Origin: a virus | Virus record (IMG/VR): IMGVR_UViG_3300037961_004224 | Span: 62,254 to 126,253 of that record | Length of the DNA stretch: 64,000 nt | Strand: one strand, 5' to 3' | In this document: piece after piece, positions 42,157-62,482 of the stretch | Layout: the number at the start of each line of letters is the position of its first letter | Position numbering within the stretch: the stretch's first letter is position 1 | Program-made: the position numbers and the translations under genes | The notes under the pieces: generated by a model | Told to the model about the DNA's origin: nothing | What the model saw: only the letters and a program-made list of their open reading frames with translations | Database searches by the model: none

Positions 42157-42158
42157 TT

Positions 42159-44315: not shown

Positions 44316-44395
44316 AAATTATTTTCCCTTTATTTCCTTGCACATAACAATACCTATTGATAGTTACACCAATAGGCATTGAAAAGCAAAAATAT

Positions 44396-46065: not shown

Positions 46066-46095
46066 AATATGGACCCGTTTATTTAAATTTTAAAA

Positions 46096-46926
46096 TTATC
46101 CACCACCCAAAGGAGGACTCCAAGGTGTATCCCCAGAAGGTAGAGCCTCAGAACCGCTAAGTATATAATCGCTAAGTATATCTAATGGAGATTCGGCTGG
46201 AAGAAAAACTCTGCCCCTGTAGGACTCATCTTGTTCTTCAAGTAAATCGTGTAAAGTTCTAACTCCATTTGTATCTGTAGCATCATCAGGTAAAGGCATT
46301 GTGCTTGGTTTAGAATCTCCACGAATCGGAATAAGTTTAGTGGTGGTTTGAACACACGGATGATCAGGACCACTTAAAATACCCCTTAAATCCTTATCTA
46401 TTATAGGTCTCCATCCTGATGAAATATTACCGCTTGTGCAATTAACTTGTAATGCTACCTTATAAGTAACTTCAAAGGGAACACCGCTACAAGTCGGAAC
46501 ATCACGTACAATAAACTCAGCAGAACCGTACCAGCGACAATCAACATCTCCACCATCAGGACCATGCGGCGTTAGTGTAACCCCAGCAATGTACCCAGTG
46601 TAATTCATAAAAGAATCTAAATTTACACCACAATTTTCAAATGGATTAAATGGATCTAAAACAGAGTATGGAGTTATACCCCCATTGACAACACATGCGT
46701 ATTGGTCTTCCATATTTGTTTCATCTACTGGACATTTATGCAGACATATTGGACCAATATTTACTTTTATTCTGTCATAAACTCCTATTGTCCCAGAACC
46801 CCTGTATTGTTCAGCATCAACTATACTTGTGCTTGTATGAATACTTGGAGAATCAAGACACCAAGGATGTCCCGCACGTTTGCATGGACAATTGCAATCC
46901 GAATCTTGTGTATGATATTCTGGCAT
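46096..46926 (-). CDS. Cys-rich protein 3, 276 aa; paralog of protein 2
   Basis: The same motifs occur in the same order (CNCPCKRAGHPWC…PSGDTPWSPPL). Confidence 0.8.
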   Translation of the reverse strand: MPEYHTQDSDCNCPCKRAGHPWCLDSPSIHTSTSIVDAEQYRGSGTIGVYDRIKVNIGPICLHKCPVDETNMEDQYACVVNGGITPYSVLDPFNPFENCGVNLDSFMNYTGYIAGVTLTPHGPDGGDVDCRWYGSAEFIVRDVPTCSGVPFEVTYKVALQVNCTSGNISSGWRPIIDKDLRGILSGPDHPCVQTTTKLIPIRGDSKPSTMPLPDDATDTNGVRTLHDLLEEQDESYRGRVFLPAESPLDILSDYILSGSEALPSGDTPWSPPLGGG

Positions 46927-46983
46927 AATATTAATCTTTCGTATTAGCGTGGTGGTTATAGTACTCTGATTAATACACCATGA

Positions 46984-49047
46984 TTAATTTCTTCTTATTA
47001 TTTTAACAGAAGCTGGATTATAGCCTGCTGCCCATTCTTGGCCATAATACATTTTATTTTCATCTTTCTTGCTTTCCATAGCATTAGCTACTCTACCAAT
47101 AACAGCATAAGAAGGATTGGGTATTTCCCTATGCATCGTTCTAGCAATCATGTTTGCAATAACAAGAGCAGAATAACGGTCTTTTCTCATTCTGCCCTTT
47201 TTACCAGTTCCTAGTTTTATCTCCGGTGTATCAAATTTTTCACGCCCAGATGCTGTACGAGTTACCATGATTGTGGATAATTCGGTCTTTAAATCTTCTA
47301 TATCCATTATAACATCTTCAAGCGTGTCATACAATTTTAATGCTGCACTATCTCCAATCTGATCTTTAAGTTTTTTGAATCTTGTTTCATCTTGTTTCGT
47401 GACCATTCCCAGAGTAAGTTGGTCAAATCTTGGAAATAGTAAAAATCTATCCTCCATGTCTTTTCTGAGTCCATGATTGGCTTGGGATGTCCATTCTGCA
47501 CTTGCAAAGTTTATATATTCTAAAATATGCAAACCGGGAAGACGGTCTGTATCTTTCGCCTTGTCCTCTATAATGGGCAATATGGCGACTTCATTTAATG
47601 CGGGGTCCATTTTATCGGGATCTCTTAAACCCTCTGCAATCGCGTATCCGCCGCCCTGAGAGTCAATGCCAATTTTAACGCATGGAAAAACTTGCATCAA
47701 GTCTCTGATTTTTCTAACACAAAATCCATAATAATCATTTACTTCAGTAAGGCCCAGCTTTTTTCTGTTTTGAAAATCTTTTTTATTTGTTGTCCAAGAG
47801 TAAACTATTCTTTGATGCTGCTCATGAATCTCCATAACTATCAAAGCGAAGTTATCAACCTCACTAGCGGGGTCAATTCCAAATATATACTGCTTGTCTT
47901 GACTTCCGCGAGTCATAGCATCAAACGGCCCCTCACACCAAGTCGGCCAATTTTCTTTCGCAACATTTTTGTCGCTCGCCACACATGCCTCTATAACAGT
48001 TCTTTTGAAGAATCCTTGTGAGTCCTTTGCAAAACATGCACCATACTCCATTAAATAAATTCCACTATGCATCGTAGCACGAGAGCGTGATACCTGCTGG
48101 TCATCCATAAAACCTTCAGGAATAAGCTCGTATGGCATTCTTATTATAGAGAACTCTTTATAATTAAGACGTTTCATATATTCTGGTATATCTTCAGCAT
48201 TTCCATCCTCAATTAGTTTTTCTATATTGCCGCCGCTTTTAATTGTTTTTTGATATTTACGATGGTAATCTGCATAAGGCTCAAAATCATAGCCCGCCGT
48301 TCCCGAAAGAATAGATTGGTTGCGATGCCTTTCATTAAATTTTTCTTCTTGCTTTTCAGACCAAACACCATCTTCTTGCATAGCTTTTCTTGTCGCAGCT
48401 TCTTTTACATTTCCAGCAGGGTCTTTAGAAACAGCCGCAAAACCAGCAACAACAGTTTCATATATTTCAACAGGTATCGAATTAAATTCGTCTGCTATGA
48501 TTGTATGAGCACGAAGACCACGAATCTTGCTTCCATCGCCCAATGGTACTGCTATGGTCCAACTATCATTGACCTTCAAAGTACATCTGTCAACATCTCT
48601 GCGAGGACCACTAGCATCATTACAAAGGCTTCTATAGATTGGTGCATTACGCCAAATAACATCCATGTACTCAAATATGACTTTTGATTGCCTGAATGCA
48701 GCACCAACAATTACAATTTTAGATCCGGGTATAAGAAGGCATCTTAGTGCCGCATAAACAGCAAGAAGGTATGATTTTCCAAAACCTCGACTGGCAATAT
48801 ACATAGGGAAAGACTTGTTCCAAAGTTCTTGTAGTATTACTACTTGTTCTGGAAGCAAGTCAACATTGAGTAGCGTTTTTACAGTCCAATGCATATATTT
48901 TGGATTACGCATTATTTTTAATATATGAAGATGGAAATTATTTTGTTCCCACTCAGTAAGATTTGTAAGCGGGTTTTTGATATCTTTTACATCTTCTTTT
49001 TTCAGTCTTAGCCAAGCATACTGATAATCTTCAACATCGTAACTCAT
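46984..49047 (-). CDS. terL: Terminase large subunit, 687 aa
   Basis: Walker A ASRGFGKS, Walker B IIADE, RNase H-like nuclease FGIDPAS…IGIDS…KDRYSA. Confidence 0.92.
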   Translation of the reverse strand: MSYDVEDYQYAWLRLKKEDVKDIKNPLTNLTEWEQNNFHLHILKIMRNPKYMHWTVKTLLNVDLLPEQVVILQELWNKSFPMYIASRGFGKSYLLAVYAALRCLLIPGSKIVIVGAAFRQSKVIFEYMDVIWRNAPIYRSLCNDASGPRRDVDRCTLKVNDSWTIAVPLGDGSKIRGLRAHTIIADEFNSIPVEIYETVVAGFAAVSKDPAGNVKEAATRKAMQEDGVWSEKQEEKFNERHRNQSILSGTAGYDFEPYADYHRKYQKTIKSGGNIEKLIEDGNAEDIPEYMKRLNYKEFSIIRMPYELIPEGFMDDQQVSRSRATMHSGIYLMEYGACFAKDSQGFFKRTVIEACVASDKNVAKENWPTWCEGPFDAMTRGSQDKQYIFGIDPASEVDNFALIVMEIHEQHQRIVYSWTTNKKDFQNRKKLGLTEVNDYYGFCVRKIRDLMQVFPCVKIGIDSQGGGYAIAEGLRDPDKMDPALNEVAILPIIEDKAKDTDRLPGLHILEYINFASAEWTSQANHGLRKDMEDRFLLFPRFDQLTLGMVTKQDETRFKKLKDQIGDSAALKLYDTLEDVIMDIEDLKTELSTIMVTRTASGREKFDTPEIKLGTGKKGRMRKDRYSALVIANMIARTMHREIPNPSYAVIGRVANAMESKKDENKMYYGQEWAAGYNPASVKIIRRN

Positions 49048-49498
49048 GTGCTTTTCTTAAAATCCTATATGCTACTTGTTCTGCTTTGTACCTATCTCCA
49101 CAAGCCAAGACATGTATACCATAATCCTCTCTGGCTGTGTATATTACTTTTCTTATGTAGGCTGCCGGTATTCTCAATCTTTTTCTTACTCTCTCTGGGA
49201 CTTTAGCAGATTTAGGATAGTTATTAATATCATCCCAACTAAATTCAAAAAGAATATATGCGTGTTTGCATTCTGACATTCTTTTCATGCAAGCTTGCCA
49301 TCTTTTTTCTATACAATTATGTGCAAACTCATCAATAGATTGTTTTCTTTCAATGCATACATAATCTTCTAAACCGTCTATCGTATAGTCACCAGCATTT
49401 ACTTTATTTACAACAGTTCCTTCACAATATGCATCAGGAGCAAAAGACCATCCGTGGTCAGGTTTTTCCCTCGTGTCTCTTATTACTGTAAACTTCAT
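49031..49498 (-). CDS. ERCC4/XPF-domain nuclease, 155 aa
   Basis: Motifs IRDTRE, AGDYTI, CIERKQSIDE (GDX…ERK signature). Confidence 0.8.
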   Translation of the reverse strand: MKFTVIRDTREKPDHGWSFAPDAYCEGTVVNKVNAGDYTIDGLEDYVCIERKQSIDEFAHNCIEKRWQACMKRMSECKHAYILFEFSWDDINNYPKSAKVPERVRKRLRIPAAYIRKVIYTAREDYGIHVLACGDRYKAEQVAYRILRKAHELRC

Positions 49499-49878
49499 GC
49501 TTCATCTTCTTTATTTTTATTAAACTGTTTTATTTTGTCAAGCATTTGCCATTCTAATATTTTTAAGAAAAAACCTTCATAGTCATGTTCTTTACCTTTA
49601 ATATCATCGTGACATTTCTTGCAAAGCGTTATGCCATTTGCAGTAACAAATCTCATTCCCGGATAATTTGCCCAAGTTTTTATATGATGAACTTGTAACC
49701 TATGACGAGAGCAACATCCCGGCCACTGACACTGGTGGTTGTCTCGTTTCTTTATGTCTTCTCGCCATTTTGTATATTCAGGACTTTTATAGTCTCTAGA
49801 GTCCTTTCTGTATTTAGCCTTTTTAAATTTGTTGTACTTTTTCTGAGTGTATGGTTTGCGTTTCTTCTTCGCCATCAA
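49495..49878 (-). CDS. HNH endonuclease, 127 aa
   Basis: RDNHQCQWPGC…VHHI…NGITLCKKCH. Confidence 0.88.
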   Translation of the reverse strand: MMAKKKRKPYTQKKYNKFKKAKYRKDSRDYKSPEYTKWREDIKKRDNHQCQWPGCCSRHRLQVHHIKTWANYPGMRFVTANGITLCKKCHDDIKGKEHDYEGFFLKILEWQMLDKIKQFNKNKEDEA

Positions 49879-50983
49879 TGTCCCTCCGAACCATTCTTTT
49901 TACTAACTCTTTGAAAGATACCTTTGGTTCCCACTTTAAAACTTCTTTTGCTTTAGTAGGTCTACCGCAAAGATATTCAACTTCGGCGGGTCTGTAAAAT
50001 TTAGGATCAATGACGACATAAGGTTCAAAGTCTTGTATGTTAATTTCATTAAAAGCCTCTCGTAAAAAATCACGAACAGAGTAAGTTTCTCCAGTAGCAA
50101 TAACAAAATCCTGCGGATCATCTTGTTGAACCATGAGCCACATGGCCTCAACGTAATCTTTTGCATGTCCCCAGTCTCGATAAGCATCTAAGTTACCAAG
50201 ACGCAATTTAGGAAATGTTGAGTTGTTTGGGCCTAAAACCAAATCGTTTCCATTCTGAGGTGGATCATTAACAAAGCCTACACTCATTGCCCATCGTTTG
50301 AACTCTCCAATCCATTTAGTTATTTTGCGTGTAACAAATTGTTCACCTCTTCTTTCACTTTCGTGGTTAAATAAGATACCACAGCAAGCGTGTATTCCAT
50401 AGCCCTCTCGGTATATTCTAACCATGTGATGTGCTGACAGTTTTGCAGCGGCATAAGGACTTTGTGGCATAAAAGCAGTATTCTCATCTTGATATTTCTT
50501 GTAATCATACAAGCCTTTACCATTAACGCCATCAACAACAATATTATTGTCTTTTACAATAAGTGTTGCATGATCATCTACTGTATAGTTTTTACCAAAA
50601 AGTTCACTTGTTGATGCTTGATAAAATTTAGTTTCAGGAGAAAACTTCTGTATACCTTCAAGAAAATAAATTGGACCAAGTGCATCTACCGCAAAAGTAT
50701 AATGTGGTTGGTCGAACGATGTCTTAACATGAGATTGTGCAGCAAGATTATATATTTCATCAAACTGCCCTTTCTGCACTATTGAATACACCGAAAAAGC
50801 ATCACTCAAATCTCCTTCTACCAAAGAAAAATTTTCATTTGTAAGAATACTACTAATTCTATCTAAATTAGGCATACTGCTTCTTCTTACCAAACCTACA
50901 ACAGAGTATCCTTTTGACAACAATAATTCTGCTAAATAAGATCCATCTTGTCCTGTAATTCCTGTAATTAGAGCTTTTTTCAT
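49823..50983 (-). CDS. gmd: GDP-mannose 4,6-dehydratase
   Basis: ALITGITGQDGSYLAE, YNLAAQSHV, YQASTSELFG, PQSPYAAAK, GILFNHES, RDWGHAKDYV, FYRPAEV. Confidence 0.95.
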   Translation of the reverse strand: MKKALITGITGQDGSYLAELLLSKGYSVVGLVRRSSMPNLDRISSILTNENFSLVEGDLSDAFSVYSIVQKGQFDEIYNLAAQSHVKTSFDQPHYTFAVDALGPIYFLEGIQKFSPETKFYQASTSELFGKNYTVDDHATLIVKDNNIVVDGVNGKGLYDYKKYQDENTAFMPQSPYAAAKLSAHHMVRIYREGYGIHACCGILFNHESERRGEQFVTRKITKWIGEFKRWAMSVGFVNDPPQNGNDLVLGPNNSTFPKLRLGNLDAYRDWGHAKDYVEAMWLMVQQDDPQDFVIATGETYSVRDFLREAFNEINIQDFEPYVVIDPKFYRPAEVEYLCGRPTKAKEVLKWEPKVSFKELVKRMVRRDIDGEEETQTIHSEKVQQI

Positions 50984-50984
50984 T

Positions 50985-52100
50985 TTACTCTTCTCCTCTC
51001 TGTGGTTCTTGAAATGATTGTTTTTGATTTAGTATTAGTAAAGTATATAGAAGTAATTTCCTAGCAAAGTCGCTGGATAAATATTTATCGGAAAAATCAG
51101 AGGCATTGTTAGATAATTTCATCTGCTCTTCTGGTTCATGTATTAGATATTGGAATACCTCCATCAAATTATGAGTATCTACCTCTAATAGATGTTTTGA
51201 GGATTGAAGAAGAGGATAAAACCATTCTACAAAATCATCTTGAGGATTTCTTATTTTGATAACAACAGAGTTAGATTTAAGTTGCCAAGGCAATCTACCC
51301 CACGCTGAAGTATGACCATCTACAGATAGTTGGAATTTATACTTTAGTTGCTCTTGAATAGTTACCTTTTCTTCTTCTTGACAAAAGTGGCCTGACTCAG
51401 AAAGTCCCGGAAAATATTTTTCTACTTCTTCTACAACGCCTGCCCATTCTTCGTCATCAAATTTTGGAGGCTTCATAATTTTACAAGACCACAAATCGGG
51501 TGCTTGTTTAGCCATCCAAGCCATTTGAAGTCTTTGGTTGTATTGTATGCCGTGACCATTCCATCCGATATTGGTCAAAGATCCGGCAAATGACATTTTG
51601 TTTTGTTTGTGAAGAATAGGCTTGTCAAGATAATCAACCATTTCATATTCTACATGACCATAAATAGAATTCAAGCTTGGCATAAGTATAGAATTTGAAA
51701 AAGAATTCTTACTGAATGTTAATGCCGGTACATGCTGCATTTTATCAACAGGCATGTCGCTTAAACAAATGGGAATAACCAAATTCAACTCATCCATCAA
51801 ATTGCCAATTTCTGGATTTGATCTTGATAAATCTTGAAGTGTTTTTGCCATTATAGAAGTTCTGTTTTTTATAGAAAACTTTTCTTCGTATAAATGTTCA
51901 TTCTTCAACAATCCAAAGTCGCCTTTATAAAAATGTGCTACAACATCAGATGGTCCTAGTTTATAATGATCAATAACGTATTGAGGTGGTAAGTTTTCAA
52001 AAGATGATGTTTGATGGTCAACTATATCTGCGACATCATCGGGTATTTCTAGTATCTTTTTAATTTGTTCTTTTGAAGTTACTTTCTTTCCTGATATCAT
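50985..52100 (-). CDS. Glycosyltransferase family 90 (CAP10/POGLUT-like) protein, 371 aa
   Basis: KYKFQLSVDGHTSAWGRLPWQLKSNSVVIK…EWFYPLL…H matches the GT90 C-terminal signature. Confidence 0.7.
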   Translation of the reverse strand: MISGKKVTSKEQIKKILEIPDDVADIVDHQTSSFENLPPQYVIDHYKLGPSDVVAHFYKGDFGLLKNEHLYEEKFSIKNRTSIMAKTLQDLSRSNPEIGNLMDELNLVIPICLSDMPVDKMQHVPALTFSKNSFSNSILMPSLNSIYGHVEYEMVDYLDKPILHKQNKMSFAGSLTNIGWNGHGIQYNQRLQMAWMAKQAPDLWSCKIMKPPKFDDEEWAGVVEEVEKYFPGLSESGHFCQEEEKVTIQEQLKYKFQLSVDGHTSAWGRLPWQLKSNSVVIKIRNPQDDFVEWFYPLLQSSKHLLEVDTHNLMEVFQYLIHEPEEQMKLSNNASDFSDKYLSSDFARKLLLYTLLILNQKQSFQEPQRGEE

Positions 52101-52909
52101 TTGCTTTCCTCGTTTATAACTGAATCTGAATTTAATAGTGGTTGATCTACTTCGCCATCTTCATACTCGTGAAAATCAGACAACCTTTTTCTAGCTTTTT
52201 CTCCAGCAATGGCTTGTACCGCCATATCGAATCCTTCTTTTTCTCTGTTCTCTATAGAATCAAGTTCACGCATCCACATGCTGAAGTTTGTTTTAGCATC
52301 ATCGGCTACACGCTTTCTTTGTTCACGAGTACCTTTAAGATCCTTTAGATATCTTTCTTTTTTTGTCAAAAGTTTTTCATGTTCATTGATATAACTAGAC
52401 TTGCTACCAATCATAGCACCTAGCTGTGTTTGAAACATAGCAAGAGCTTGTGTGTCTTGCATATCTTTTGGTTTATCCATCTCTTCATCAATAAGCTTGT
52501 TGAGAGTATCAATGTTGACCATAATTTCTTGTCTGTCTTCCATTGATCTGTTGATAAGCACTTCTGTGCGTATAACTTCTAGAATTTGCATTTCTTCTGT
52601 GTGAGTAACATCTTCATTGAACTGTTTAAAAAAGTCAATCCAATTGTGCTCAAAGAATATTATCTCAGCGTCATTCATTTGCTTTGAAAGTTCTTTGTAA
52701 TAGTAACGATCTCGTAAAGTAGATAGAAGGTGTTCTTCGTCAGTTAGATCTCTTGCTTTGAGATTCTTTTTGTCGATGTACTTGCGAATAGGATCAATTT
52801 TTCTATTTAGATTGTTGGCAATGTCCTCAAGAGACAAATCAAAACAGTTCTGTTCTATATATGCCATTTCTTGATTTGACAGTTTACCACGTTTCCGGCT
52901 CAATTCCAT
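52097..52909 (-). CDS. Putative terminase small subunit or HTH/coiled-coil protein, 270 aa
   Basis: N-terminal HTH-like segment (LSNQEMAYIEQN…LEDIANNLNR) and a coiled coil; upstream of terL in the same operon. Confidence 0.4.
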   Translation of the reverse strand: MELSRKRGKLSNQEMAYIEQNCFDLSLEDIANNLNRKIDPIRKYIDKKNLKARDLTDEEHLLSTLRDRYYYKELSKQMNDAEIIFFEHNWIDFFKQFNEDVTHTEEMQILEVIRTEVLINRSMEDRQEIMVNIDTLNKLIDEEMDKPKDMQDTQALAMFQTQLGAMIGSKSSYINEHEKLLTKKERYLKDLKGTREQRKRVADDAKTNFSMWMRELDSIENREKEGFDMAVQAIAGEKARKRLSDFHEYEDGEVDQPLLNSDSVINEESK

Positions 52910-53525
52910 TCTCCTTTAAAATTTGAAATATAAACTCAATCATTTGTTCTCTTTTTTGTTTGGATATTTTTAACTTGTTGCTAAATCTTATCCAATCTTC
53001 TCTCATAGAGACAGGTATATTTGAATTTATTAATTTATATATTTCTTTGCTAAATATTTTATCATCTACTTTTGCGTCATACTGTACTTCTGAATTTACA
53101 CTACTGATTGATGATGTTTGATTGCTTGCCAAACTTTTCTTAACTTCGTTTCTGTTGAACCATTTAAAATAATGATTACAGTCCATCATGCTGCTAAACT
53201 TTGTACATTCATGATTTATGTATGCCTTAAATGGACAATTGTCACATGGCTTGTCGGGTCTTGCAAAATTGTCTCTTTTAAAGTTATGCAATCTATTTCT
53301 AGCATGAATCCATAAAAAACTGTCGAGCGAATTGCCTTTTTCTGGATCAAACTTTTCTAAGATAGTTGTTCCGTTTCGATCTGGTTTTAATATCTCTAAA
53401 AAAACCTGTTGTTTCATGTCCTCGATTTCATGATAGCCAAACTTAAACTTACTGGCTAGTCTGCTCGATATTCTGGACACTATCTCTATCACTTCCTCCT
53501 CTGTATATCCCTTGGGAATCTTCAT
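52884..53525 (-). CDS. Phage sigma70-family RNA polymerase sigma factor (~213 aa)
   Basis: Region 2 pattern EDMKQQVFLEI…KFDPEKG.SL.SFLWIHARNRLHNFKRD, followed by a Cys-rich insert. Confidence 0.75.
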   Translation of the reverse strand: MKIPKGYTEEEVIEIVSRISSRLASKFKFGYHEIEDMKQQVFLEILKPDRNGTTILEKFDPEKGNSLDSFLWIHARNRLHNFKRDNFARPDKPCDNCPFKAYINHECTKFSSMMDCNHYFKWFNRNEVKKSLASNQTSSISSVNSEVQYDAKVDDKIFSKEIYKLINSNIPVSMREDWIRFSNKLKISKQKREQMIEFIFQILKENGIEPETW

Positions 53526-53703
53526 CACTTTCCTCAATATTACTTATTTCTGCTTCAAAATCGTTAAAAACTAATGTTAGTAATCCACCATCAACGTCTA
53601 TATCGACATGTGCAGAAACTATTCCGTCAATCGGCTCTCCTGTTTGAGCGTCCATAACTCTGGTGTGTGCTGGGTTTCCATCATAAAATAGTTTAAATGC
53701 CAT
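53449..53703 (-). CDS. Hypothetical protein, 84 aa
   Basis: ATG at 53703 inside the track ORF; overlaps the start of the sigma gene. Confidence 0.55.
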   Translation of the reverse strand: MAFKLFYDGNPAHTRVMDAQTGEPIDGIVSAHVDIDVDGGLLTLVFNDFEAEISNIEESDEDSQGIYRGGSDRDSVQNIEQTSQ

Positions 53704-53875
53704 CTTCTTCGTCCTCTTCCTCTTCATTTGAAGTAGCTAGAAGTTTTGATATGCTTGGAGTTGGTTTTTTGCTTGCTTTTGCTGTTTCCAATTCTTTTTC
53801 AACTTCTTCTTGAAGCTCTTCACTTGCTACTGTTCTTAGTGTTGAGCTAGTTATTTGATGCTGGGGAACTTTCAT
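53693..53875 (-). CDS. Hypothetical charged protein (~60 aa)
   Basis: ATG at 53875 with RBS AAGGAG; first gene of the late operon. Confidence 0.55.
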   Translation of the reverse strand: MKVPQHQITSSTLRTVASEELQEEVEKELETAKASKKPTPSISKLLATSNEEEEDEEDGI

Positions 53876-53967
53876 AAATTTTCTCCTTTTAAAAATCAAA
53901 AGTTGTCATTCGATACTACAATAGTATATACACGGTATGGCTACTTTTTTTGAGGAGAAACAGGATT

Positions 53968-54186
53968 ATGAATATAAAATGGTCAGAAAATGAAAAGAAC
54001 TTTGTGCGAGACAATGCACATCGTATGAAAGATAAAGAAATTGCTGAAATTTTAACAGAACAAACCGGCAGAGACGTTAGCCTTCAAGCTGTCAGAAAAA
54101 TGAGGCAGAAACTAGGCGTTAAAAAGAAATGCGGTCGAGGAATCTGTGAGCTTAATACAAACATCCATCGTCCACAAGAGGTTTAG
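53968..54186 (+). CDS. HTH/Myb-like DNA-binding protein (~72 aa)
   Basis: WSENEKNFV…DKEIAEIL…SLQAVRKMRQKLG; RBS AGGA. Confidence 0.7.
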   Translation: MNIKWSENEKNFVRDNAHRMKDKEIAEILTEQTGRDVSLQAVRKMRQKLGVKKKCGRGICELNTNIHRPQEV

Positions 54187-54409
54187 GGAAAGTGGTCGTT
54201 TGAAAATGGGGTCGGACGATTTTTAAAATAAAAGTGGTCATTTAGTCAGGGCTAGGCTTGTTTTGTGAGAACCACCTTAGAGATCCGGTACTGGTTACGT
54301 GAGATTAAGAAAAATTGAAAAAACCCCACCTCTTTATTATAAAAACTAATATTCTACAATCGTAGAAATCTATGCAAAAGTTTTAGGAAAAATTCTAGCC
54401 ATCTCTATA

Positions 54410-54424
54410 TGGCACACGGTATGC
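54410..54424 (+). promoter_or_regulatory. Sigma54-like -24/-12 site
   Basis: TGGCAC-ACGGT-ATGC (GG-N10-GC). Confidence 0.45.
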
Positions 54425-54513
54425 CCGCCCCTTGACGTAAACCCTTATGTGGTAACGACTTACGACAAATAAAAAAACTTTCTATAAAATTATAAAATAA
54501 AGTGATCTAGGGG

Positions 54514-54541
54514 TTGACAAAATGACGATACTATGTATAAT
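54514..54541 (+). promoter_or_regulatory. Sigma70-type early promoter
   Basis: TTGACA-16(ACGATA)-TATAAT. Confidence 0.85.
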
Positions 54542-54571
54542 GGAGGCATGATGATTAAGCAAAGTAAAAAC

Positions 54572-54682
54572 ATGATTAAAATGATGAACCTGATCGCCTA
54601 TGGTGGGAATCGTCCCGCTAATGTTTCCCCGGCACGATGGGAAGCAATGAAAAAGTTTTTTCAAAGAAACTTCAAAAAGTGA
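54572..54682 (+). CDS. Small basic protein, 36 aa (MIKMMNLIAYGGNRPANVSPARWEAMKKFFQRNFKK)
   Basis: Read manually; downstream of a promoter; its TGA is the start of the 14-bp motif. Confidence 0.5.
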   Translation: MIKMMNLIAYGGNRPANVSPARWEAMKKFFQRNFKK

Positions 54683-54750
54683 CCTAACGTGTCACTACCA
54701 TGTGCGATAATAATAATATGACAAGTAAACAACAACAAAAGGAAAACACG

Positions 54751-54900
54751 ATGGATCTCATGGACTTGCACAAAGTATTGATGGCCCTTGCTACTGGTAA
54801 AGTTTCTGCACAAATAGCAAACAAGCCGGAATGGGAAAAAGAGATTGATGACGTTATTAAATTTGTTCAAGAAAAACAAAAGAAAGTTATTAACTCTTGA
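54751..54900 (+). CDS. Small hypothetical protein (~49 aa)
   Basis: RBS AAGGA before ATG 54751; its stop lies in the 14-bp motif. Confidence 0.6.
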   Translation: MDLMDLHKVLMALATGKVSAQIANKPEWEKEIDDVIKFVQEKQKKVINS

Positions 54901-54968
54901 CCTAACGTGTCACACCTATAGACGATAATACTAATATGACAAACAACACTAAAGAAAGGAAAAATGTC

Positions 54969-55193
54969 ATGAAATGTTTTGATGTAACTTATATCTGCCC
55001 TTGGAATGGTCGCGAAATGACCAGCATTGAGGCTTCCGCCGATCAGTTGTACCAGAATGATTCTGGTGAGATGGTGTTCCGATACAACGATCATTACAAC
55101 GCTTGCGAAGTAGTGACCGCTGTTGAGGTTCCACAATCCCGCCTTGATGCCAAGGCTGCATACTTCAAGCGGTTCGGTACTGCTTGCGAGTAA
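54969..55193 (+). CDS. Small hypothetical protein (~74 aa)
   Basis: RBS AAGGA; part of track ORF 54936-55193. Confidence 0.65.
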   Translation: MKCFDVTYICPWNGREMTSIEASADQLYQNDSGEMVFRYNDHYNACEVVTAVEVPQSRLDAKAAYFKRFGTACE

Positions 55194-55325
55194 GCTAGAC
55201 AATCGGATATCCTACCGATACAAAATAAATTAGGTTTTGGAAGTTAAACGGTAAGTTGTACCAAGTAATCAAAACTACCGCCCCAACACACTAAAAAAGA
55301 TCAAAAAATATTTTTAGGAAAAATT

Positions 55326-55427
55326 ATGAGATTTGTACTTGACTTGCTCTATATTACCGTGGTCCCGTTCTTTTTTATGTTCGGCGTAACCTTTGCAGCT
55401 TATCTATTGTTACAATGGCCATTCTAG
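55326..55427 (+). CDS. Hydrophobic micropeptide, 33 aa
   Basis: MRFVLDLLYITVVPFFFMFGVTFAAYLLLQWPF, read manually; AGGA upstream. Confidence 0.45.
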   Translation: MRFVLDLLYITVVPFFFMFGVTFAAYLLLQWPF

Positions 55428-55557
55428 TTTGCGAATTGCCGTAAGTCCTTTGCTGGTAAGGGTTTAGGGCGAAGGCGGGCGTTTTCGACGTAAATCGTTT
55501 AGTACCAAGGAGTTACAACTATTCCTGTTATTTTTCAAAAAAAGGTAGTGATAGGGC

Positions 55558-55586
55558 TTTACAAGTGCCGATCTATTTAATATACT
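55558..55586 (+). promoter_or_regulatory. Sigma70-type early promoter
   Basis: TTTACA-17(CCGATC)-TATACT. Confidence 0.7.
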
Positions 55587-55626
55587 CTTAGTAACAAAAT
55601 TGAGTTTTACCTTTTGGAGTTTGATT

Positions 55627-55917
55627 ATGAGTTCTTTTGATTACCAGATCCAGTGTGAAGAGTTGACCCGCACCGAGCCTACCGCCGAAGATTGGGCCGA
55701 GTATGGTGCTTGGTTGGATTCGCAAGAATCCTATGAGTGGTCTGACGAGGCCATCGAATTCGAGGAGTCCTTGCGATGGGATTCTCTCTATGAGGAGGAT
55801 TCGCCTCTCAACGATCCTGCACCTTGGGATGGGTGGCAGGATTATGTTCCAGAGGAGGAAGAGGAGTTGGATTATTCCGATTATCTTTATGAACTCCAAG
55901 AAAATTTGGAGTTTTGA
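55627..55917 (+). CDS. Extremely acidic, Trp/Tyr-rich protein, 96 aa
   Basis: RBS GGAG; 32 Asp/Glu against 2 Arg and 0 Lys (manual count); its stop lies in the 14-bp motif. Confidence 0.75.
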   Translation: MSSFDYQIQCEELTRTEPTAEDWAEYGAWLDSQESYEWSDEAIEFEESLRWDSLYEEDSPLNDPAPWDGWQDYVPEEEEELDYSDYLYELQENLEF

Positions 55918-56085
55918 CCTAACGTGTCCGGGTTGGGACGGGGCCGTTTGACGTAAACCCTTTAGTAGTAAGGAGTTACAACTATTTGCTACAATATTTA
56001 TTTTTTATCAAAAGATTGACCTAACGTGTCATAGTAGTGTGCGATAATATATATAGTTAAGAAGTTAATCAGTTAAAGGAAATTT

Positions 56086-56190
56086 ATGTTTGAGAACCCT
56101 GAATTTATGTCGTTTGTTTTTGTTCCTTGTCTCATGGGAATTATTTTGTTTATTTTTTGGATTTTAGGTATAGACCCCCTTGACAAATAG
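56086..56190 (+). CDS. Hydrophobic micropeptide, 34 aa
   Basis: MFENPEFMSFVFVPCLMGIILFIFWILGIDPLDK; RBS AAGGA. Confidence 0.55.
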   Translation: MFENPEFMSFVFVPCLMGIILFIFWILGIDPLDK

Positions 56191-56207
56191 CCGATATTAT
56201 GTATAAT
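56180..56207 (+). promoter_or_regulatory. Sigma70-type early promoter
   Basis: TTGACA-16(CCGATA)-TATAAT. Confidence 0.85.
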
Positions 56208-56235
56208 AGATGAAACAACAACGAAAGGTTTAATT

Positions 56236-56643
56236 ATGAAATTTGAAAACACACCATCCGGCAAACTGCTTGCTGAGTTCCGTACCGCTATCATGGAATC
56301 AATCACGGTTCCTAATCACTTGCTTCCTGCTGAGTTGCACGATGATGTTCGTGGTTGTCGTACCCTTGCACGTTTGGATCAGCTTTGTGACAAGCGTGAT
56401 GGTTTGACTGAACACGTTAAGCGTCAACAGATCAAACAACGAAACATTGAGCGACTGAGGAATCAAGTAGTTGAAAAGTCTAGATTTAATGAGCGTGGTG
56501 ACTTCATTGATTTAGATGGTGGCTTGGATTGGTCAGATAATGAGATGGATGAGATTCAACTGCATAGGAATCAAATGGCTCTTGTGGGTGGAATGGTAAA
56601 TGGTGGGTTGATTGACTCGGATGATTTAGAGGAAGAAGTATGA
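56236..56643 (+). CDS. Hypothetical protein, 135 aa
   Basis: ORF track; RBS AAGG; downstream of a promoter. Confidence 0.75.
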   Translation: MKFENTPSGKLLAEFRTAIMESITVPNHLLPAELHDDVRGCRTLARLDQLCDKRDGLTEHVKRQQIKQRNIERLRNQVVEKSRFNERGDFIDLDGGLDWSDNEMDEIQLHRNQMALVGGMVNGGLIDSDDLEEEV

Positions 56644-56909
56644 ATGAAGAAAGTTATTATTGGCACGTTGAGCTAGAGAGATGGTTGCCGGATAGTGAGG
56701 GCAATAAAATCATTTCAAAGATTAAATATAATTTGCCGTCTGATTACAGTAGTATGCTCGACAGTTTGGAAATGATCGACGAGGCTTATCACGATTCAGT
56801 TTATAGCGGCGTTACTCGTCATATAGTTGAACGATTTGCTGGCTCTGGTTTTTTGCCGAAGAAATTAGTACCGCCTCAAGGCTTGGAGAATTATGAAGAA
56901 AATGAGTGA
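56640..56909 (+). CDS. Hypothetical protein, 89 aa
   Basis: ORF track; ATGA coupling to the previous gene. Confidence 0.65.
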   Translation: MNEESYYWHVELERWLPDSEGNKIISKIKYNLPSDYSSMLDSLEMIDEAYHDSVYSGVTRHIVERFAGSGFLPKKLVPPQGLENYEENE

Positions 56910-57149
56910 TCAAAAAAAAGCATTAATTTTTTGTTTTGTGTCTTTTATTGTTGGCGTATTTTTTTGGGATTTTTATGAAATTTTTTTTATGTAATTTATT
57001 AGGTGCTATTATTCTTACTGCCCTAACTCATTTACTGGTAAGGCTTTAGGGAAAATGGCCGCCCCGCCGCCCTAAGTCCTTTGATACCAACGACTTACGT
57101 CAATTACAAAAAACTTTTGATTTATTTCTATTTTAATTGCATAGACCCC

Positions 57150-57177
57150 TTGACAAATGCCGATAATTATGTATAAT
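57150..57177 (+). promoter_or_regulatory. Sigma70-type promoter P1 of the ncRNA unit
   Basis: TTGACA-16(CCGATA)-TATAAT. Confidence 0.85.
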
Positions 57178-57209
57178 GGGGGAGTGTTAAGGGAAACCAC
57201 GACACAAAC

Positions 57210-57228
57210 TGATCTTTGAAAATTTGGT
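57210..57228 (+). promoter_or_regulatory. rrn boxA-like element 1
   Basis: TGATCTTTGAAAATTTGGT, preceded by a GAAA-capped hairpin. Confidence 0.55.
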
Positions 57229-57258
57229 TGTTTTTTCTGATTTTGTTCAAGATACCCC

Positions 57259-57287
57259 TTGACAAATGACGATAATTATGATATAAT
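57259..57287 (+). promoter_or_regulatory. Sigma70-type promoter P2 of the ncRNA unit
   Basis: TTGACA-17(ACGATA)-TATAAT, with an extended -10 TG. Confidence 0.85.
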
Positions 57288-57313
57288 GATAACATGTTAA
57301 GTGAGTCTGTGAG

Positions 57314-57532
57314 GCGACTTGATGACGGCCAATCTCAGCCGGTCAGCTTGACTTTTTGATCTTTCACAATTTGGTAGTTCAAGGGCATGACCCGCAAACC
57401 TCGCCCAAGTCGCGAGTATAGCTGGCGAGCTATTCCAAGATACGCACCACACAACGGGTGAAATCTGAGGTAAAGGGTAGGTGATGCCGCTACTGAAAAG
57501 TACGGTAACGATTACGAACCCTCTCAGCACCC
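57314..57532 (+). ncRNA. Candidate structured ncRNA of unknown family
   Basis: Helices 57314-21/57406-13, 57418-23/57428-33, 57456-60/57528-32, 57465-69/57523-27 and 57474-78/57518-22; GAAA tetraloop hairpin at 57486-57506. Confidence 0.6.
57357..57375 (+). promoter_or_regulatory. rrn boxA-like element 2
   Basis: TGATCTTTCACAATTTGGT, 17/19 identical to element 1. Confidence 0.55.
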
Positions 57533-57545
57533 AAACAATACATAT

Positions 57546-57678
57546 GGGGCTTTTCGCAAAGGAGCAAGCCGGACGCTACTGCGTCACACAGTGTTTAAAC
57601 GCTATCCCTTTAGCGGGGGATGACCTTTAGGCGTGAGACGTTGCCGGTGTAAGGCGGGTTCGATTCCCGCAAGCCTCT
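57546..57678 (+). ncRNA. Minimal tmRNA-like RNA (tRNA-like domain plus short mRNA-like insert)
   Basis: Acceptor stem GGGGCTT/AAGCCTC; T-arm GCGGG-TTCGATT-CCCGC; GGA in a stemless D-loop; helix GCCGG/CCGGT enclosing a putative pseudoknot, TTAAAC|GCT and a 9-codon frame ending in TAG. Confidence 0.55.
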
Positions 57679-57727
57679 GCCCACAAGTGCCACGGGGGTA
57701 CGTTAAAAATGCCCGCTTACAAATATC

Positions 57728-57943
57728 ATGTTTGCCATGACCTCAGTCGTGGCGGTTCCTTGCAAGAAGTGTGAGGTGGTGAATGAACTCGAAGTAGATT
57801 TCGAGAATTTCATCGCTTGGCAGTCTCGCAAGATGTTGATCCAAGAAGCGTTTCCAACGCTTGATGCGGATCAGCGTGAGCTTCTGATCTCTGGCATTTG
57901 TCCAAAATGCTGGGATGAGATGTTCCCTCCAGAAGAGGATTGA
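57728..57943 (+). CDS. Small Zn-binding-like protein, 71 aa
   Basis: CKKC…LIQEAFPTL…RELLISGICPKCW. Confidence 0.75.
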   Translation: MFAMTSVVAVPCKKCEVVNELEVDFENFIAWQSRKMLIQEAFPTLDADQRELLISGICPKCWDEMFPPEED

Positions 57944-58045
57944 ACCGCTTTGACCGTCCCGCTTCGGCGGTGTGGAGTTTGATAAGCTCTGTCGTAATCA
58001 CTCAATTATCATAAACTCTTTTTTTCTCTGTTTAGGATTTTTAAA

Positions 58046-58201
58046 ATGGAAAATTTCCACGATTCTTTTGTTTGCGAAGATTGTGATTGTCTCGTTTTGT
58101 TTGACGATGGCGGTTGTGATTGTGACCAGTGGGAAGACTACGAAGATGATGGTCAGCCGGATGAAATGCAGGAATGGCACGATTTTGACCCGGATTGTTG
58201 A
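58046..58201 (+). CDS. Acidic Cys-rich micropeptide, 51 aa, ending DGQPDEMQEWHDFDPDC
   Basis: Read manually; AGGA upstream; its stop lies in the 14-bp motif. Confidence 0.65.
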   Translation: MENFHDSFVCEDCDCLVLFDDGGCDCDQWEDYEDDGQPDEMQEWHDFDPDC

Positions 58202-58292
58202 CCTAACGTGTCACCCTGCGGGGCGGGGGTTTTGACGTAAACCCTTAGTGCATAAGGACTTAGAGAAAATCAAAAAACTTTCAAGATTAGGC

Positions 58293-58320
58293 TTGAAAAT
58301 GACGATATATATTGTATAAT
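58293..58320 (+). promoter_or_regulatory. Sigma70-type early promoter
   Basis: TTGAAA-16(ACGATA)-TATAAT. Confidence 0.75.
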
Positions 58321-58362
58321 TGAAGTGTAACGTAAACAACTCATATGCAAAGGAAAACGAAA

Positions 58363-58575
58363 ATGGCAAATTATATTGCGAATCCGGCGAATGTTCTTGT
58401 CGATGACCGCATCGAATTCGATTATAACGGCACAACCCGAAAGGGAAAAGTTGAAAGAGTCGGAAAGACTTTTGTGACAGTCAAACACGACAATCCAGCC
58501 GATTACAAGAATAAAACTTATTCAACGTATCAATTTAAAAGAATTACTTCCCGCATACGTCATCTCGCTTTTTAG
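58363..58575 (+). CDS. Small SH3-like beta protein (~70 aa)
   Basis: RBS AAGGA; IEFDYNGTTRKGKVERV…VTVKH. Confidence 0.7.
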   Translation: MANYIANPANVLVDDRIEFDYNGTTRKGKVERVGKTFVTVKHDNPADYKNKTYSTYQFKRITSRIRHLAF

Positions 58576-58607
58576 TGAGTGGCTTTTCGTGACCTCCTTT
58601 CGTGTTG

Positions 58608-58641
58608 CCCCTCGATTACTTTGGTAGTCGGGGGGTTTTTT
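58608..58641 (+). terminator. Rho-independent terminator
   Basis: CCCCTCGATTAC-TTTG-GTAGTCGGGGGG followed by T6. Confidence 0.8.
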
Positions 58642-58719
58642 GTTGCATCCAAGGTAGCTTGTTGAGTTTGTGATAAAAATTAGCACGCGAGTTTTTATAA
58701 AATAATTAAAGTTGACCCC

Positions 58720-58747
58720 TTGTAATTGACGATATATACTGTATAAT
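58720..58747 (+). promoter_or_regulatory. Sigma70-type early promoter
   Basis: TTGTAA-16(ACGATA)-TATAAT. Confidence 0.7.
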
Positions 58748-58771
58748 GAGGTCATAACATGAAAGGAAATT

Positions 58772-59224
58772 ATGCTAAACATTAAACCACACGTTAGCAA
58801 GAGCAGCGAAGTCGTAGACTTTATTAATGTAGAAAAGAAGGTTCGTGTATATCGTAACCTGCACAAAAACTGTTTCAGTATCAAGCAGGACGGTTTGGTT
58901 CGTTGCCATGCCGACCACGTAACTTTGCGTGATTGTAAATTCATTGTGTCCAAGGCTGGACAAAAAAGGGTCAGGGATGAAGGTCGTAAAAACGTACATG
59001 CGTTTGTTGAGGGTTATGTTTGTGCTACTCGTAAGGCCGACAAGATTGTTGACGGTGCGAAGTCTGATGCCGAGATGGATGCAGGCAAGAGTGACTGGAA
59101 AAAAGCCTACTATAACCCATATACCTGCGACACGTTCATCAATCAGTATGACGGATCACCACTAGAAACATCAACGTTTGCTGATCTTTACGTTGATCCA
59201 ACTGCAATCTACATCTTTAACTAG
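58772..59224 (+). CDS. Conserved phage hypothetical protein, 150 aa
   Basis: RVYRNLHK.CFSI…GQKRVRDEGRKNVHAFV…YNPY motif; RBS AAGGA. Confidence 0.8.
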   Translation: MLNIKPHVSKSSEVVDFINVEKKVRVYRNLHKNCFSIKQDGLVRCHADHVTLRDCKFIVSKAGQKRVRDEGRKNVHAFVEGYVCATRKADKIVDGAKSDAEMDAGKSDWKKAYYNPYTCDTFINQYDGSPLETSTFADLYVDPTAIYIFN

Positions 59225-59234
59225 GAGAATTATA

Positions 59235-59573
59235 ATGGGACTTGACCAATACGCATCTATTCGTAAGGATGGGGAAGAGGATAAGGAAATTGCCTATTGG
59301 CGTAAGCATCCTAACCTGCAAGGGTGGATGGAACAGCTTTGGCGTGAGAAGGGTGGAGAGGGTGAATTCAACTGTGTTGATGTTGAGTTGACGTTTGAGG
59401 ATCTTGAGCAGCTTGAAGCATCTATTGAGGGTGCAGAGTTGCCGGAAACAGTAGGTTTCTTCTTTGGTAATAGCTCCGATGATTATTACAAAGAACAAGA
59501 TTTAGAATTTATTGCCGATGCTTCGGAAGCAATCGAGCATGGTTACAAAGTTGTTTACACTTCGTGGTGGTAG
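59235..59573 (+). CDS. Conserved phage hypothetical protein (MGLDQY…YWRKHPNLQGWM), 112 aa
   Basis: RBS AGGAG; part of track ORF 59178-59573. Confidence 0.8.
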   Translation: MGLDQYASIRKDGEEDKEIAYWRKHPNLQGWMEQLWREKGGEGEFNCVDVELTFEDLEQLEASIEGAELPETVGFFFGNSSDDYYKEQDLEFIADASEAIEHGYKVVYTSWW

Positions 59574-59669
59574 CCCTAAGTCCTTTGCCCGTAACGACTT
59601 ACGACGGGCGAAGCTCCCCCCGCCGATCCTAAGTCCTTTGATACCAACGACTTACGACGATTCCGCAGA

Positions 59670-59684
59670 GCAAATGGTGTGCCA
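59670..59684 (-). promoter_or_regulatory. Sigma54-like -24/-12 site
   Basis: The minus strand reads TGGCAC-ACCAT-TTGC, a full consensus match. Confidence 0.55.
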
Positions 59685-59764
59685 AAGTTTTTTTTGGTTT
59701 TTTTTAAGATTTCCTATTGACAAAGTATTTCAGGAATATTCCCAGAATAATTATAGACAACCAC

Positions 59765-59792
59765 TTGACTTTGCCGATGTATATTGTATAAT
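59765..59792 (+). promoter_or_regulatory. Sigma70-type early promoter
   Basis: TTGACT-16(CCGATG)-TATAAT. Confidence 0.8.
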
Positions 59793-59836
59793 GATAGTGT
59801 AACAAGTTAAGTTTTTTTCTCTCGAAAGGTTTTGCT

Positions 59837-60751
59837 ATGAGCAATGTTCAATCCACCGATGTTTCTTCTGTCGTTCGTTCCGCTTTTGATTTCAGCGTGG
59901 ACAAGTTCCCTCTGTACGGCCCTGAGTCGCTGCCGACCGATCAATACGGTTTGTTCCGTTCTGATACTGGTTTCATCAAGGGTGTAAAATCCGTGTCCAA
60001 GCGATATGTGCCGCATGAAACTGAGGACGTTTGTGCCTTGGTCGATGCTGCTGGTGATGCGTTTGATGGTGATATTGAGGTCAAAACGCACTGGCGTGAG
60101 GGTCACTACGTTTCTGTCGCTCCAACGCGAGCGGAACGCAAGTCCATCTACGGGACTGCTGACAATATTTTCCCGCGAATTATTATTCGTGCGGGTTATG
60201 ACGGTCAAGCCTTCACCGGCACGATGGGTTACTACCGCGATGCGTGTAACAATCTCGCCATGATGCGTCGAGTCTCTGGCACTTGTGTCAAGATCCGCCA
60301 CTCGTCTGGCTTGCGTGCAGCAATGGACGATCTGATTCAGACGTTCAGCCAGCTTTCCGCAGGTTGGGAGCATCTCGTCGAGGTTGCTCAGGAATTGGAA
60401 TCCCGCGAGGTTCGTATGGTCGAGTTTCTCGATCAGATTTATGGTCGTCCTTCGGATGAACAGCTTGCACTTGCCAATAGTGGTCAACGTGTTCGGGCTG
60501 TTACAAGCCACCAGAATCGCACAGAAGCGATCTGGAAGCGTCTCAACCGCGAGCGTGTTCGCACTGGTCGTCCTACCATGACCAACGACATCGTGAGTGC
60601 GTGGGAAGCGTTCAACGCTGTTCAGGGTTATGTGCAGCATGATGCACAAGCCAAGAGCGGTTTCAAAGGTGAGTTTGACCGTATTCTCCGAGCCGCCAAC
60701 GATCAAGCAGTAAACAAGGCCGAGCGTCTTGTGCTTGAACTGGCAGCGTAG
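59837..60751 (+). CDS. DUF932 / TIGR03299-like protein, 304 aa
   Basis: Pattern (GLFRSD…VSKRYVPH…YRDACNNL…KIRHS…AWEAFNAVQGYVQH) recognised by eye. Confidence 0.65.
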   Translation: MSNVQSTDVSSVVRSAFDFSVDKFPLYGPESLPTDQYGLFRSDTGFIKGVKSVSKRYVPHETEDVCALVDAAGDAFDGDIEVKTHWREGHYVSVAPTRAERKSIYGTADNIFPRIIIRAGYDGQAFTGTMGYYRDACNNLAMMRRVSGTCVKIRHSSGLRAAMDDLIQTFSQLSAGWEHLVEVAQELESREVRMVEFLDQIYGRPSDEQLALANSGQRVRAVTSHQNRTEAIWKRLNRERVRTGRPTMTNDIVSAWEAFNAVQGYVQHDAQAKSGFKGEFDRILRAANDQAVNKAERLVLELAA

Positions 60752-60768
60752 CCGTACCTTTCGAGAGT

Positions 60769-60803
60769 GCCTCGCCCCTTGTAGGGGCGGGGCTTTTCCT
60801 TTT
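60769..60803 (+). terminator. Rho-independent terminator
   Basis: GCCTCGCCCCT-TGT-AGGGGCGGGGC followed by a T-rich tract. Confidence 0.8.
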
Positions 60804-61195
60804 CTCTTGTTAGGTTTGGCATGACACAGTTTTTAGTTATTTGCGTGATTTTTATTATCGTTCACAGTTTTGCAGAAAGTTGGAAATAATTTGATTTTGG
60901 GGCTTGACAGAATTCTTGTCAAGTCCTTTTTTTTATTTTTCTCGAATTAACGTAAGTCCTTACCAGCAAACGACTTACGGCGGGCGGGGTGGCTCCGGCA
61001 TCTCGTAAGTCCTTATATATCAACAACTTAGAACAATACAAGATTTTTTGATGTTGATGTAAGTGTATGGTATGTATAGACTTATGACATATGGAATCCG
61101 CCGCACATGGTACAGTGGAGTGTCGCACTCCATCTACACATATCGCACAGATACTCATAGCCAGCGAAAATTATGATTTTTATTTAAGTAACCTA

Positions 61196-61224
61196 TTGAC
61201 AAATACCGATATGTATGATATAAT
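61196..61224 (+). promoter_or_regulatory. Sigma70-type early promoter
   Basis: TTGACA-17(CCGATA)-TATAAT. Confidence 0.85.
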
Positions 61225-62212: not shown

Positions 62213-62482
62213 TTGGAGAAAAAAATGATTACGCCACAAGAAAACAGAGACATAAAAGAAGAAATGCAACCAGTTATCAATGAGCTAAAGAAAAAAGGTA
62301 TTAGATTTAATAGTAAGGAAAACGAGATAACGGGTTTGGGCGACATCGTTGAAACAACACTTCAATCATTTGGAATCACAGAAGAGAGATTCAAAAAATG
62401 GTTTAACTTAAAAGAATGTAATTGTAAAGAGCGTAAACGCTGGCTTAATAACTTATTTTCATGGAGAAAAAATAATGAGTGA
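62213..62482 (+). CDS. Paralog of 544-801, 89 aa
   Basis: GLGDIVETTLQSFGITEE…CNCKERKRWLNNLF. Confidence 0.75.
   Translation: MEKKMITPQENRDIKEEMQPVINELKKKGIRFNSKENEITGLGDIVETTLQSFGITEERFKKWFNLKECNCKERKRWLNNLFSWRKNNE

Follow-up and report, generated by a model that had tools for sequence, protein, structure and literature searches.

Palindromic sites between the early operons of a marine phage lineage: putative protein-bound boundary elements and joints of module exchange

The early region of a large marine phage carries a series of 29-bp palindromic sites, which were analyzed here in a stretch of 64,000 bp (the window; positions 62,254 to 126,253 of the IMG/VR virus record IMGVR_UViG_3300037961_004224). 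According to the interpretation that we prefer, and to which we give about an even chance of being correct, the sites are boundary elements of early operons that are bound as duplex DNA by a symmetric protein, probably one supplied by the host, and that double as recombination joints. Each site would be the double-stranded target of a dimeric DNA-binding protein, probably of host origin, and a unit consisting of a single site, or of a pair around a GC-rich spacer, would mark the border of two immediate-early transcription units, following the last gene of one and preceding, by 20–60 bp, the −35 box of the host-type promoter that comes next. The GC-rich spacer would form a small hairpin and in one lineage a true terminator. 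Thereby, the element might punctuate the transcription of early genes, be it in the manner of an upstream promoter element or an insulator, or by a protein roadblock beside a terminator hairpin, and it appears to copy an architecture of some Planctomycetota chromosomes. Because the same sequence of about 30–90 bp recurs every 1–1.5 kb, the units could serve as exchange joints at which early-gene modules are exchanged, deleted and permuted, probably by general recombination; a gene for a RecA-like protein is present in the phage.

For the detection of the sites, the whole record of 126,253 bp was scanned with a degenerate pattern consisting of the half-site CSTAARYCSTT, a 7-bp core and the reverse-complement half-site, and matches at 18 or more of 22 positions were kept. 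Exactly 11 sites of 11-7-11 geometry were obtained, with scores of 19–22 of 22, all within 54436–61032 of the window. The rest of the record held only two weak matches with a wrong core length, and 20 shuffles yielded 0–4 matches at this threshold; no site of 11-7-11 geometry was found by the degenerate scan in the late arm or in the 62 kb of the record beyond the window. Eight of the 11 sites form four pairs: sites 2 and 3 at 55440–55517 (55440–55468 and 55489–55517) and sites 5 and 6 at 57022–57099 (57022–57050 and 57071–57099), each with a GC-rich spacer of 20 bp, and sites 8 and 9 at 59575–59656 (59575–59603 and 59628–59656) and sites 10 and 11 at 60951–61032 (60951–60979 and 61004–61032), each with a GC-rich spacer of 24 bp. 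The other three are single and have a GC-rich stretch to their left, namely site 1 (54436–54464), with a consensus promoter 49 bp rightward, site 4 (55952–55980), preceded by a second motif at 55915 and a G-rich stretch, and site 7 (58236–58264), which has the same two features before it, with the second motif at 58199, and a promoter 28 bp rightward. Ten different cores occur among the 11 sites, the only shared one belonging to the sites at 57071 and 59628, and every site has the end of a reading frame on one side and a plus-strand promoter on the other. A preliminary description of this DNA, made from the letters alone, had reported eleven palindromes with variable 7-bp cores, four pairs with GC-rich spacers of 20, 20, 24 and 24 bp, the lack of a complete copy in the late region, and a location after stop codons and before promoters. 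It proved right in each point that could be checked, including its statement that the sites partition the early region, the modules being a promoter plus genes. Within each half-site, CAA-N4-TTA is nearly invariant, and an IHF-type consensus, WATCAANNNNTTR, is complete in lineages with a 13-3-13 geometry (a likeness in sequence, the dyad spacing set aside). This IHF likeness may serve as a lead only.

The two arms of the sites were compared position by position. At the variable positions 2, 6, 7 and 9, the Watson-Crick fraction was 0.54, 0.45, 0.54 and 0.48, respectively, compared with 0.49, 0.52, 0.60 and 0.45 expected for independent arms, and the mismatch frequency of 30–47% at these four stem positions equals the random expectation. 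When arms were swapped between contigs, the folding energy was −7.87 kcal/mol versus −7.86 kcal/mol for the native sites (p = 0.37). Also, the four half-sites of a pair allow six pairings, none of which showed inverted covariation, and a weak direct resemblance was seen at one position. The invariant TAA and TT, with their mirror images, are conserved as sequence and not as pairs. Since the arms vary independently and without compensation, we infer that they are half-sites in duplex DNA rather than hairpins, and the sites look like double-stranded targets which a symmetric protein would bind.

The GC-rich spacers behave differently from the arms: their sequence differs by lineage, and a clear small tetraloop hairpin is present in some lineages. 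In the lineage with a spacing of 58 bp, the central spacer, when read in the direction of transcription, has the form of a GC hairpin with a T run behind it, and it alone qualifies as an intrinsic terminator; the window spacers fold weakly only, and no intrinsic terminator was called at the 11 sites or the four spacers of the window. This lineage, the location of the sites after stop codons, and two metagenome-assembled genomes (MAGs) of bacteria in which a site lies 1 and 35 nt, respectively, past the 3′ end of a tRNA gene would fit palindromes that act as RNA hairpins, that is, as terminators, RNase III processing sites or 3′-end stabilizers of early mRNAs similar to the sites between the early genes of T7. 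Given the random level of arm mismatch without compensatory changes, the null result of the arm swap, the lack of a T run after the window sites, and the position of site 1, which has no same-strand upstream gene within 250 bp, this explanation is clearly improbable.

A plus-strand promoter follows all seven units of the window, and five of these match the sigma-70 consensus at 11–12 of 12 positions. They comprise a promoter with 12/12 matches downstream of site 1 (54514–54541), two tandem promoters with 12/12 each downstream of sites 5 and 6 (57150–57287), promoters with 11/12 downstream of site 7 (58293–58320) and of sites 8 and 9 (59765–59792), and a promoter with 12/12 downstream of sites 10 and 11 (61196–61224); the promoter downstream of sites 2 and 3 (55558–55586) matches at 10/12. 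Single sites in the window are always on the promoter side, and the promoter-proximal site is therefore the constant part of the unit. The link to promoters holds for the viral contigs described below: among 434 units in 121 loci, 217 have a promoter with at least 10/12 matches reading away within 150 bp, with a peak at 20–50 bp, compared with 34 of the 434 that have one reading toward the unit, the background density being 0.46 per kb per strand.

The second motif mentioned above is an exact 14-bp repeat, TGACCTAACGTGTC, which occurs on the plus strand of the window at 54680, 54898, 55915, 56017 and 58199 (five copies, 0.01 expected). In four copies the upstream frame ends with the TGA of the motif as its stop codon, an extended −10-like box and then a gene follow three copies, and in two copies the motif takes the place of the left-hand palindrome of a unit. 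It is present in relatives, too, and may represent a second class of promoters or operators.

When IMG/VR was scanned for exact matches to this degenerate pattern, at least 120 contigs were obtained, with about one match expected by chance. A relaxed scan of the matched loci gave at least 728 sites, 694 of them unique, and the consensus palindrome thereby grew to about 37 bp. Pairs predominate, and among the matches listed their start-to-start distance is preferentially 53 bp (139 cases), followed by 58, 52, 50 and 41–42 bp. Five further records of 112–233 kb, three of them complete, contain 13–24 sites per genome, nearly all in one segment, with the exception of one genome (G005) that has two clusters; the reversed pattern, used as control, gave no match in these five records. 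In the genomes examined, the sites fill only the first 7–14 kb of a longer promoter-rich arm beside a gene for a sigma-like factor.

Four relatives were fetched whole and clustered by gene families together with this record. The five genomes share 16 protein families, among them RecA-like protein, DnaB, primase, a split DnaE, head protein, terminase and the sigma-like factor, as well as a 136-aa protein of unknown function. Based on these shared families, the five phages belong to one family-level lineage with 35–39% GC. At DNA level, the early region and one unit had no real match among GenBank phages, a tblastn search with the sigma-like protein found no match in cultured phages, and the terminase matched GenBank phages at about 26% identity only. 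The stretch occurs in public runs of eight studies, which are metagenomes of marine, seawater and sponge origin and none of which is listed as an RNA run, and a literature search with the half-site words found unrelated primers only. The element is a widespread cis-element of a lineage of large marine phages (112–233 kb), unmatched in the GenBank phage collection searched. As a side observation, the gene core of the lineage, represented at 41059–55017 of the genome (locus L003, outside the window), includes RecA-like protein, DnaB, primase, a deoxynucleoside monophosphate kinase and DnaE in two genes, with other genes between the halves.

The scan was extended to one genome per prokaryotic species and returned at least 120 stretches; 36 of the 120 among the matches listed carry Planctomycetota labels. 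Many matches in Firmicutes look like common terminator hairpins fitting the palindromic pattern by chance, and a few short contigs with several sites are phage fragments binned into MAGs. In the Planctomycetota sites, the arms are non-complementary, as in the phage sites. Five genomes of this phylum contain 76, 22, 16, 10 and 8 sites when two mismatches are allowed, with none in the control. In the richest one, the Planctomycetia MAG G007 with 76 sites, the sites belong to a repeated intergenic element: two sites are separated by about 61 nt that include a small GC hairpin, and the second site is followed, after about 28 nt, by the consensus promoter TTGACA-17-TATAAT. The copies differ in sequence between these conserved parts. 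The architecture of the host element is that of the phage element, and in each of four examples that were checked the motif stands upstream of a consensus promoter. One copy of G007 lies 1.1 kb upstream of the 23S rRNA gene and another leads straight into a CRISPR array, and in a second genome (G006) a site is found 41 nt upstream of a promoter that precedes the 16S gene by 347 nt; the sites next to tRNA genes come from two other MAGs. Genes flanking single bacterial matches share no common family, so that no regulon can be deduced, and genes downstream of one host composite promoter belong to no known family, so that no link of the host element to a mobile gene could be made. None of 21 CRISPR spacers of G007 matched the phages. 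Two further features of this MAG were noted: at loci L245–L264, several copies of the element are followed by a conserved transcribed stretch of about 100–200 nt of unknown nature, and a second type of site stands directly after a TTGAC box.

As judged from these bacterial copies, a sequence-specific DNA-binding protein might occupy strong promoters such as those of rRNA genes and CRISPR arrays and be exploited by the phages. The motif links the phage lineage to chromosomes of the Planctomycetota type and could serve as a marker for host prediction; to our knowledge, few phages are known for this phylum. The bacterial copies point, but weakly, to a host-type element and to Planctomycetota as the probable hosts.

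An alternative, unlikely but to be taken seriously, is that the sites are operators of a regulator conserved in the phage lineage, which would shut off or time the immediate-early promoters after infection, as known for TF1 of SPO1 acting on early promoters and for the mycobacteriophage stoperators. Operators had been named in the preliminary description only as an alternative to recombination sites, and they come closer to the evidence than a recombinase does. The arms act as independent half-sites, the array occupies only the initial part of the early arm, the common gene core includes the sigma-like factor and the 136-aa protein, and small helix-turn-helix (HTH)-like genes adjoin the array, all of which agrees with a phage regulator. 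However, an HU/IHF-type gene is not present, and a purely phage-encoded binder leaves the same motif and architecture at bacterial rRNA and CRISPR promoters unexplained. Neighboring proteins of 78 aa and 270 aa were considered as candidate binders, but two genomes with arrays showed no detectable copy of either. By clustering, all five genomes have the sigma-like factor, yet a sigma factor is not expected to bind palindromes. Stoperators of cluster A mycobacteriophages are 13-bp sites distributed genome-wide and bound by a known repressor encoded by the element itself, and the dispersed KorB operators on RK2 are comparable. With both, the sites described here share the many copies of one sequence in short intergenic gaps of one replicon; unlike them, they are limited to the first part of the early arm and also occur in bacterial chromosomes.

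Several points weigh against a host-supplied binder and the other parts of the boundary-element interpretation. No protein binding the sites was identified. All array-bearing phages belong to the one lineage with 16 shared gene families, so that the binder might instead be encoded by the phage. The distance between a site and the −35 box varies from 28 to 163 bp in the window, which speaks against a classical phased activator. When 150 further genomes were drawn evenly from the phylum, six had 1–2 sites at up to one mismatch; the motif is thus patchy in Planctomycetota, a phylum-wide host factor is not supported, and the host assignment is weak. Also, the phages have a GC content of 35–39%, compared with about 60% in the host genome G007. 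Finally, the joints between modules described below have a shorter side of only 28–31 nt of assembled contig.

Repetitive extragenic palindromic (REP) sequences and the bacterial interspersed mosaic elements (BIMEs) formed by them bind architectural proteins, and E. coli has RIP and RIB elements of the IHF-binding type. The phage and host sites resemble REP dimers and BIMEs in being extragenic palindromes of 20–40 bp that end transcription units, are often paired around a structured spacer, and are present in high copy number with patchy distribution (PMC3733652). They differ in that their arms do not maintain the complementarity expected of REP/BIME hairpins, as the covariation and arm-swap tests gave null results, in that no consistent GTAG or CGTC tag is present, and in that no RAYT gene flanked by sites was found among ten Y1_Tnp loci. 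The REP survey cited describes no ordered array in a phage early region, and the word 'phage' occurs in it 0 times (PMC3733652).

Selfish palindromes of this kind, spread by HUH transposases (Y1, RAYT-type) of the host into the intergenic regions of phages and with a function that is secondary, if any, would account for the high copy number and the patchiness among genomes (8–76 copies in five genomes, 1–2 copies in 6 of 150 others). They would also fit the dimers with spacers of about 12–61 bp (20–24 bp in the window, 61 in G007), some with a small stem-loop, comparable to REP dimers (PMC3733652). Furthermore, host genomes rich in sites have many Y1_Tnp genes (41 in G007), and 5 of about 20 site loci lie within 3.4 kb of one, with less than one expected. 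We nevertheless consider such an origin improbable: besides the lost stem complementarity, nine of the ten fetched Y1_Tnp loci have no site within 1.5 kb, Y1_Tnp was not found in five phage records, the phage units stand regularly upstream of promoters and in one segment only, and the host copies differ between their conserved parts, unlike recent copies of a transposon.

The boundary-element interpretation includes an exchange of modules at the units, and rearrangements were indeed found there. Compared with the closest relative among the matches listed (L037), the first three modules are in a different order, and a block of homology begins exactly at site 4, which corresponds to the right-hand member of a pair in L037. 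Assembled contigs of co-occurring variants from four marine metagenome runs of four studies were aligned to the stretch for the detection of joints. A joint of 55468 to 57071, with 25 different GC-rich letters between, was found in three runs of three studies, and further joints connect 55466 to 60983, 55471 to 61006 and 58022 to 60950, while one leads from 59572 back to 55429. The units make up 6.8% of the stretch, and 13–14 of the 36 joint end points listed are no more than 5 bp away from them; most others fall at promoters or at the second repeated motif. The joints show that the same site has varied neighbors in the population; they do not show the mechanism.

From the geometry of the sites, the preliminary description had deduced a site-specific cassette shuffling system for early genes. 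The shuffling itself was borne out by the L037 permutation and the joints, by which modules are rearranged or replaced at the sites; in particular, module order, the invariance of which among relatives had been named as one of the findings that would speak against shuffling, differs from that of L037. The proposed tyrosine-recombinase mechanism, in turn, did not hold. All 11 sites do have the core-site geometry of inverted arms around a 6–8 bp overlap, with arms of about 11 bp and a 7-bp center as in dif, loxP and attC, and the modules of relatives differ at the sites. Strand exchange by tyrosine recombinases needs matching cores in the partner sites, however, and ten different cores among 11 sites are far from an identical overlap. 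Unlike in dif, loxP and attC, the break points appear to lie outside the centers, at the site edges and in the GC-rich spacer (as judged from diverged relatives and short contig sides), and not inside the cores, where the preliminary description had suggested looking for them. No recombinase gene had been seen in the window, and this absence extends to the whole record (81% complete), in which no Phage_integrase (PF00589), Resolvase (PF00239) or Y1_Tnp domain was detected. The tyrosine recombinase that was to be sought in the full genome and its relatives was not found in the latter, either: PF00589 is absent from five relatives, three of them complete, and Y1_Tnp from four, so the element comes with no cognate recombinase in these genomes. 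Crossover sites of a tyrosine recombinase or of an integron-like system are therefore largely refuted as an explanation and retain hardly any credence. A related idea, which we rate as rather doubtful, is that the units are the ends of self-contained early cassettes (a promoter and 1–4 small genes flanked by 29-bp palindromes), which would be moved from phage to phage, and perhaps between phage and host, by a site-directed mechanism without known recombinase families, with the palindrome binder as part of the machinery.

For the promoter early stem-loop (PeSL) cassettes of T4-type phages, homologous recombination between repeated promoter/stem-loop elements has been proposed (PMC2839356, PMC4122927). 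Like PeSLs, the element described here is composite and recurs in intergenic space, with a stem-loop ahead of an early promoter close to the sigma-70 consensus (PMC2839356, PMC4122927), although the GC spacer folds significantly in part of the lineages only. It is likewise concentrated among small variable early genes, and insertions, deletions, replacements and displaced open reading frames that distinguish relatives map to it, as seen from the L037 permutation and the joint end points. The two differ in their phages, as the lineage studied here has a tape measure protein of 3303 aa and is not a T4-like myovirus. They also differ in the palindrome of 29–37 bp, which is often doubled and retains its sequence in very distant relatives as well as in bacterial genomes. 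The stems of PeSLs vary, and a palindrome resembling a protein site has not been described for them. By analogy, the element may be regarded as a PeSL-like cassette plus a protein-binding palindrome. It would then be a second independent case, after the T4 PeSLs, of regulatory cassettes acting as joints for the shuffling of early genes, here with evidence from metagenomes at the population level.

The window is the last 64 kb of the single virus record, for which CheckV estimated a completeness of 81%. Its minus strand carries structural genes at 830–53537, including those for the tape measure protein, the large terminase and the major head protein. Genes on the plus strand extend from about 54.4 kb to the end of the record and continue at its start through the replication genes. 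The array is therefore located at the very start of the rightward, promoter-rich arm and adjoins the point of divergent transcription. This placement, seen in the arrays at the start of the early arm only, could suggest signals for stepwise DNA entry or for packaging in the genome end that enters first. Such a role is very improbable, as copies of the element are scattered over bacterial chromosomes, where they adjoin promoters, and as each operon border has its own unit, in place of a single cluster.

Some neighboring features were recorded in addition. The gene for the sigma-like factor (52884–53537, minus strand) diverges from the array; its Sigma70_r2 score of 22.3 bits is below the cut-off of 24. 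It belongs to the core genes of the phage lineage, and in other contigs it is the most frequent neighbor of arrays. The tape measure protein is encoded at 10876–20787 on the minus strand, and its 3303 aa would imply an unusually long tail. At the divergence point, a non-coding gap (54186–54436) contains a short direct repeat, AAAGTGGTC, twice and may represent a genome end, a packaging site or an origin. Searches with Rfam and ARAGORN gave no matches in the window. The two tandem promoters at 57150–57287 are nearly identical and 109 bp apart, and metagenome variants with a joint of 57171 to 57293 have one of them deleted. Behind these promoters, about 430 bp (57290–57725) are free of reading frames and matched nothing in ARAGORN or Rfam. 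The region holds a tRNA-like T-arm, is conserved in the relatives L033, L092, L117 and L080, has a 3–6x higher summed depth in the metagenome contigs, and is regarded as a candidate non-coding RNA.

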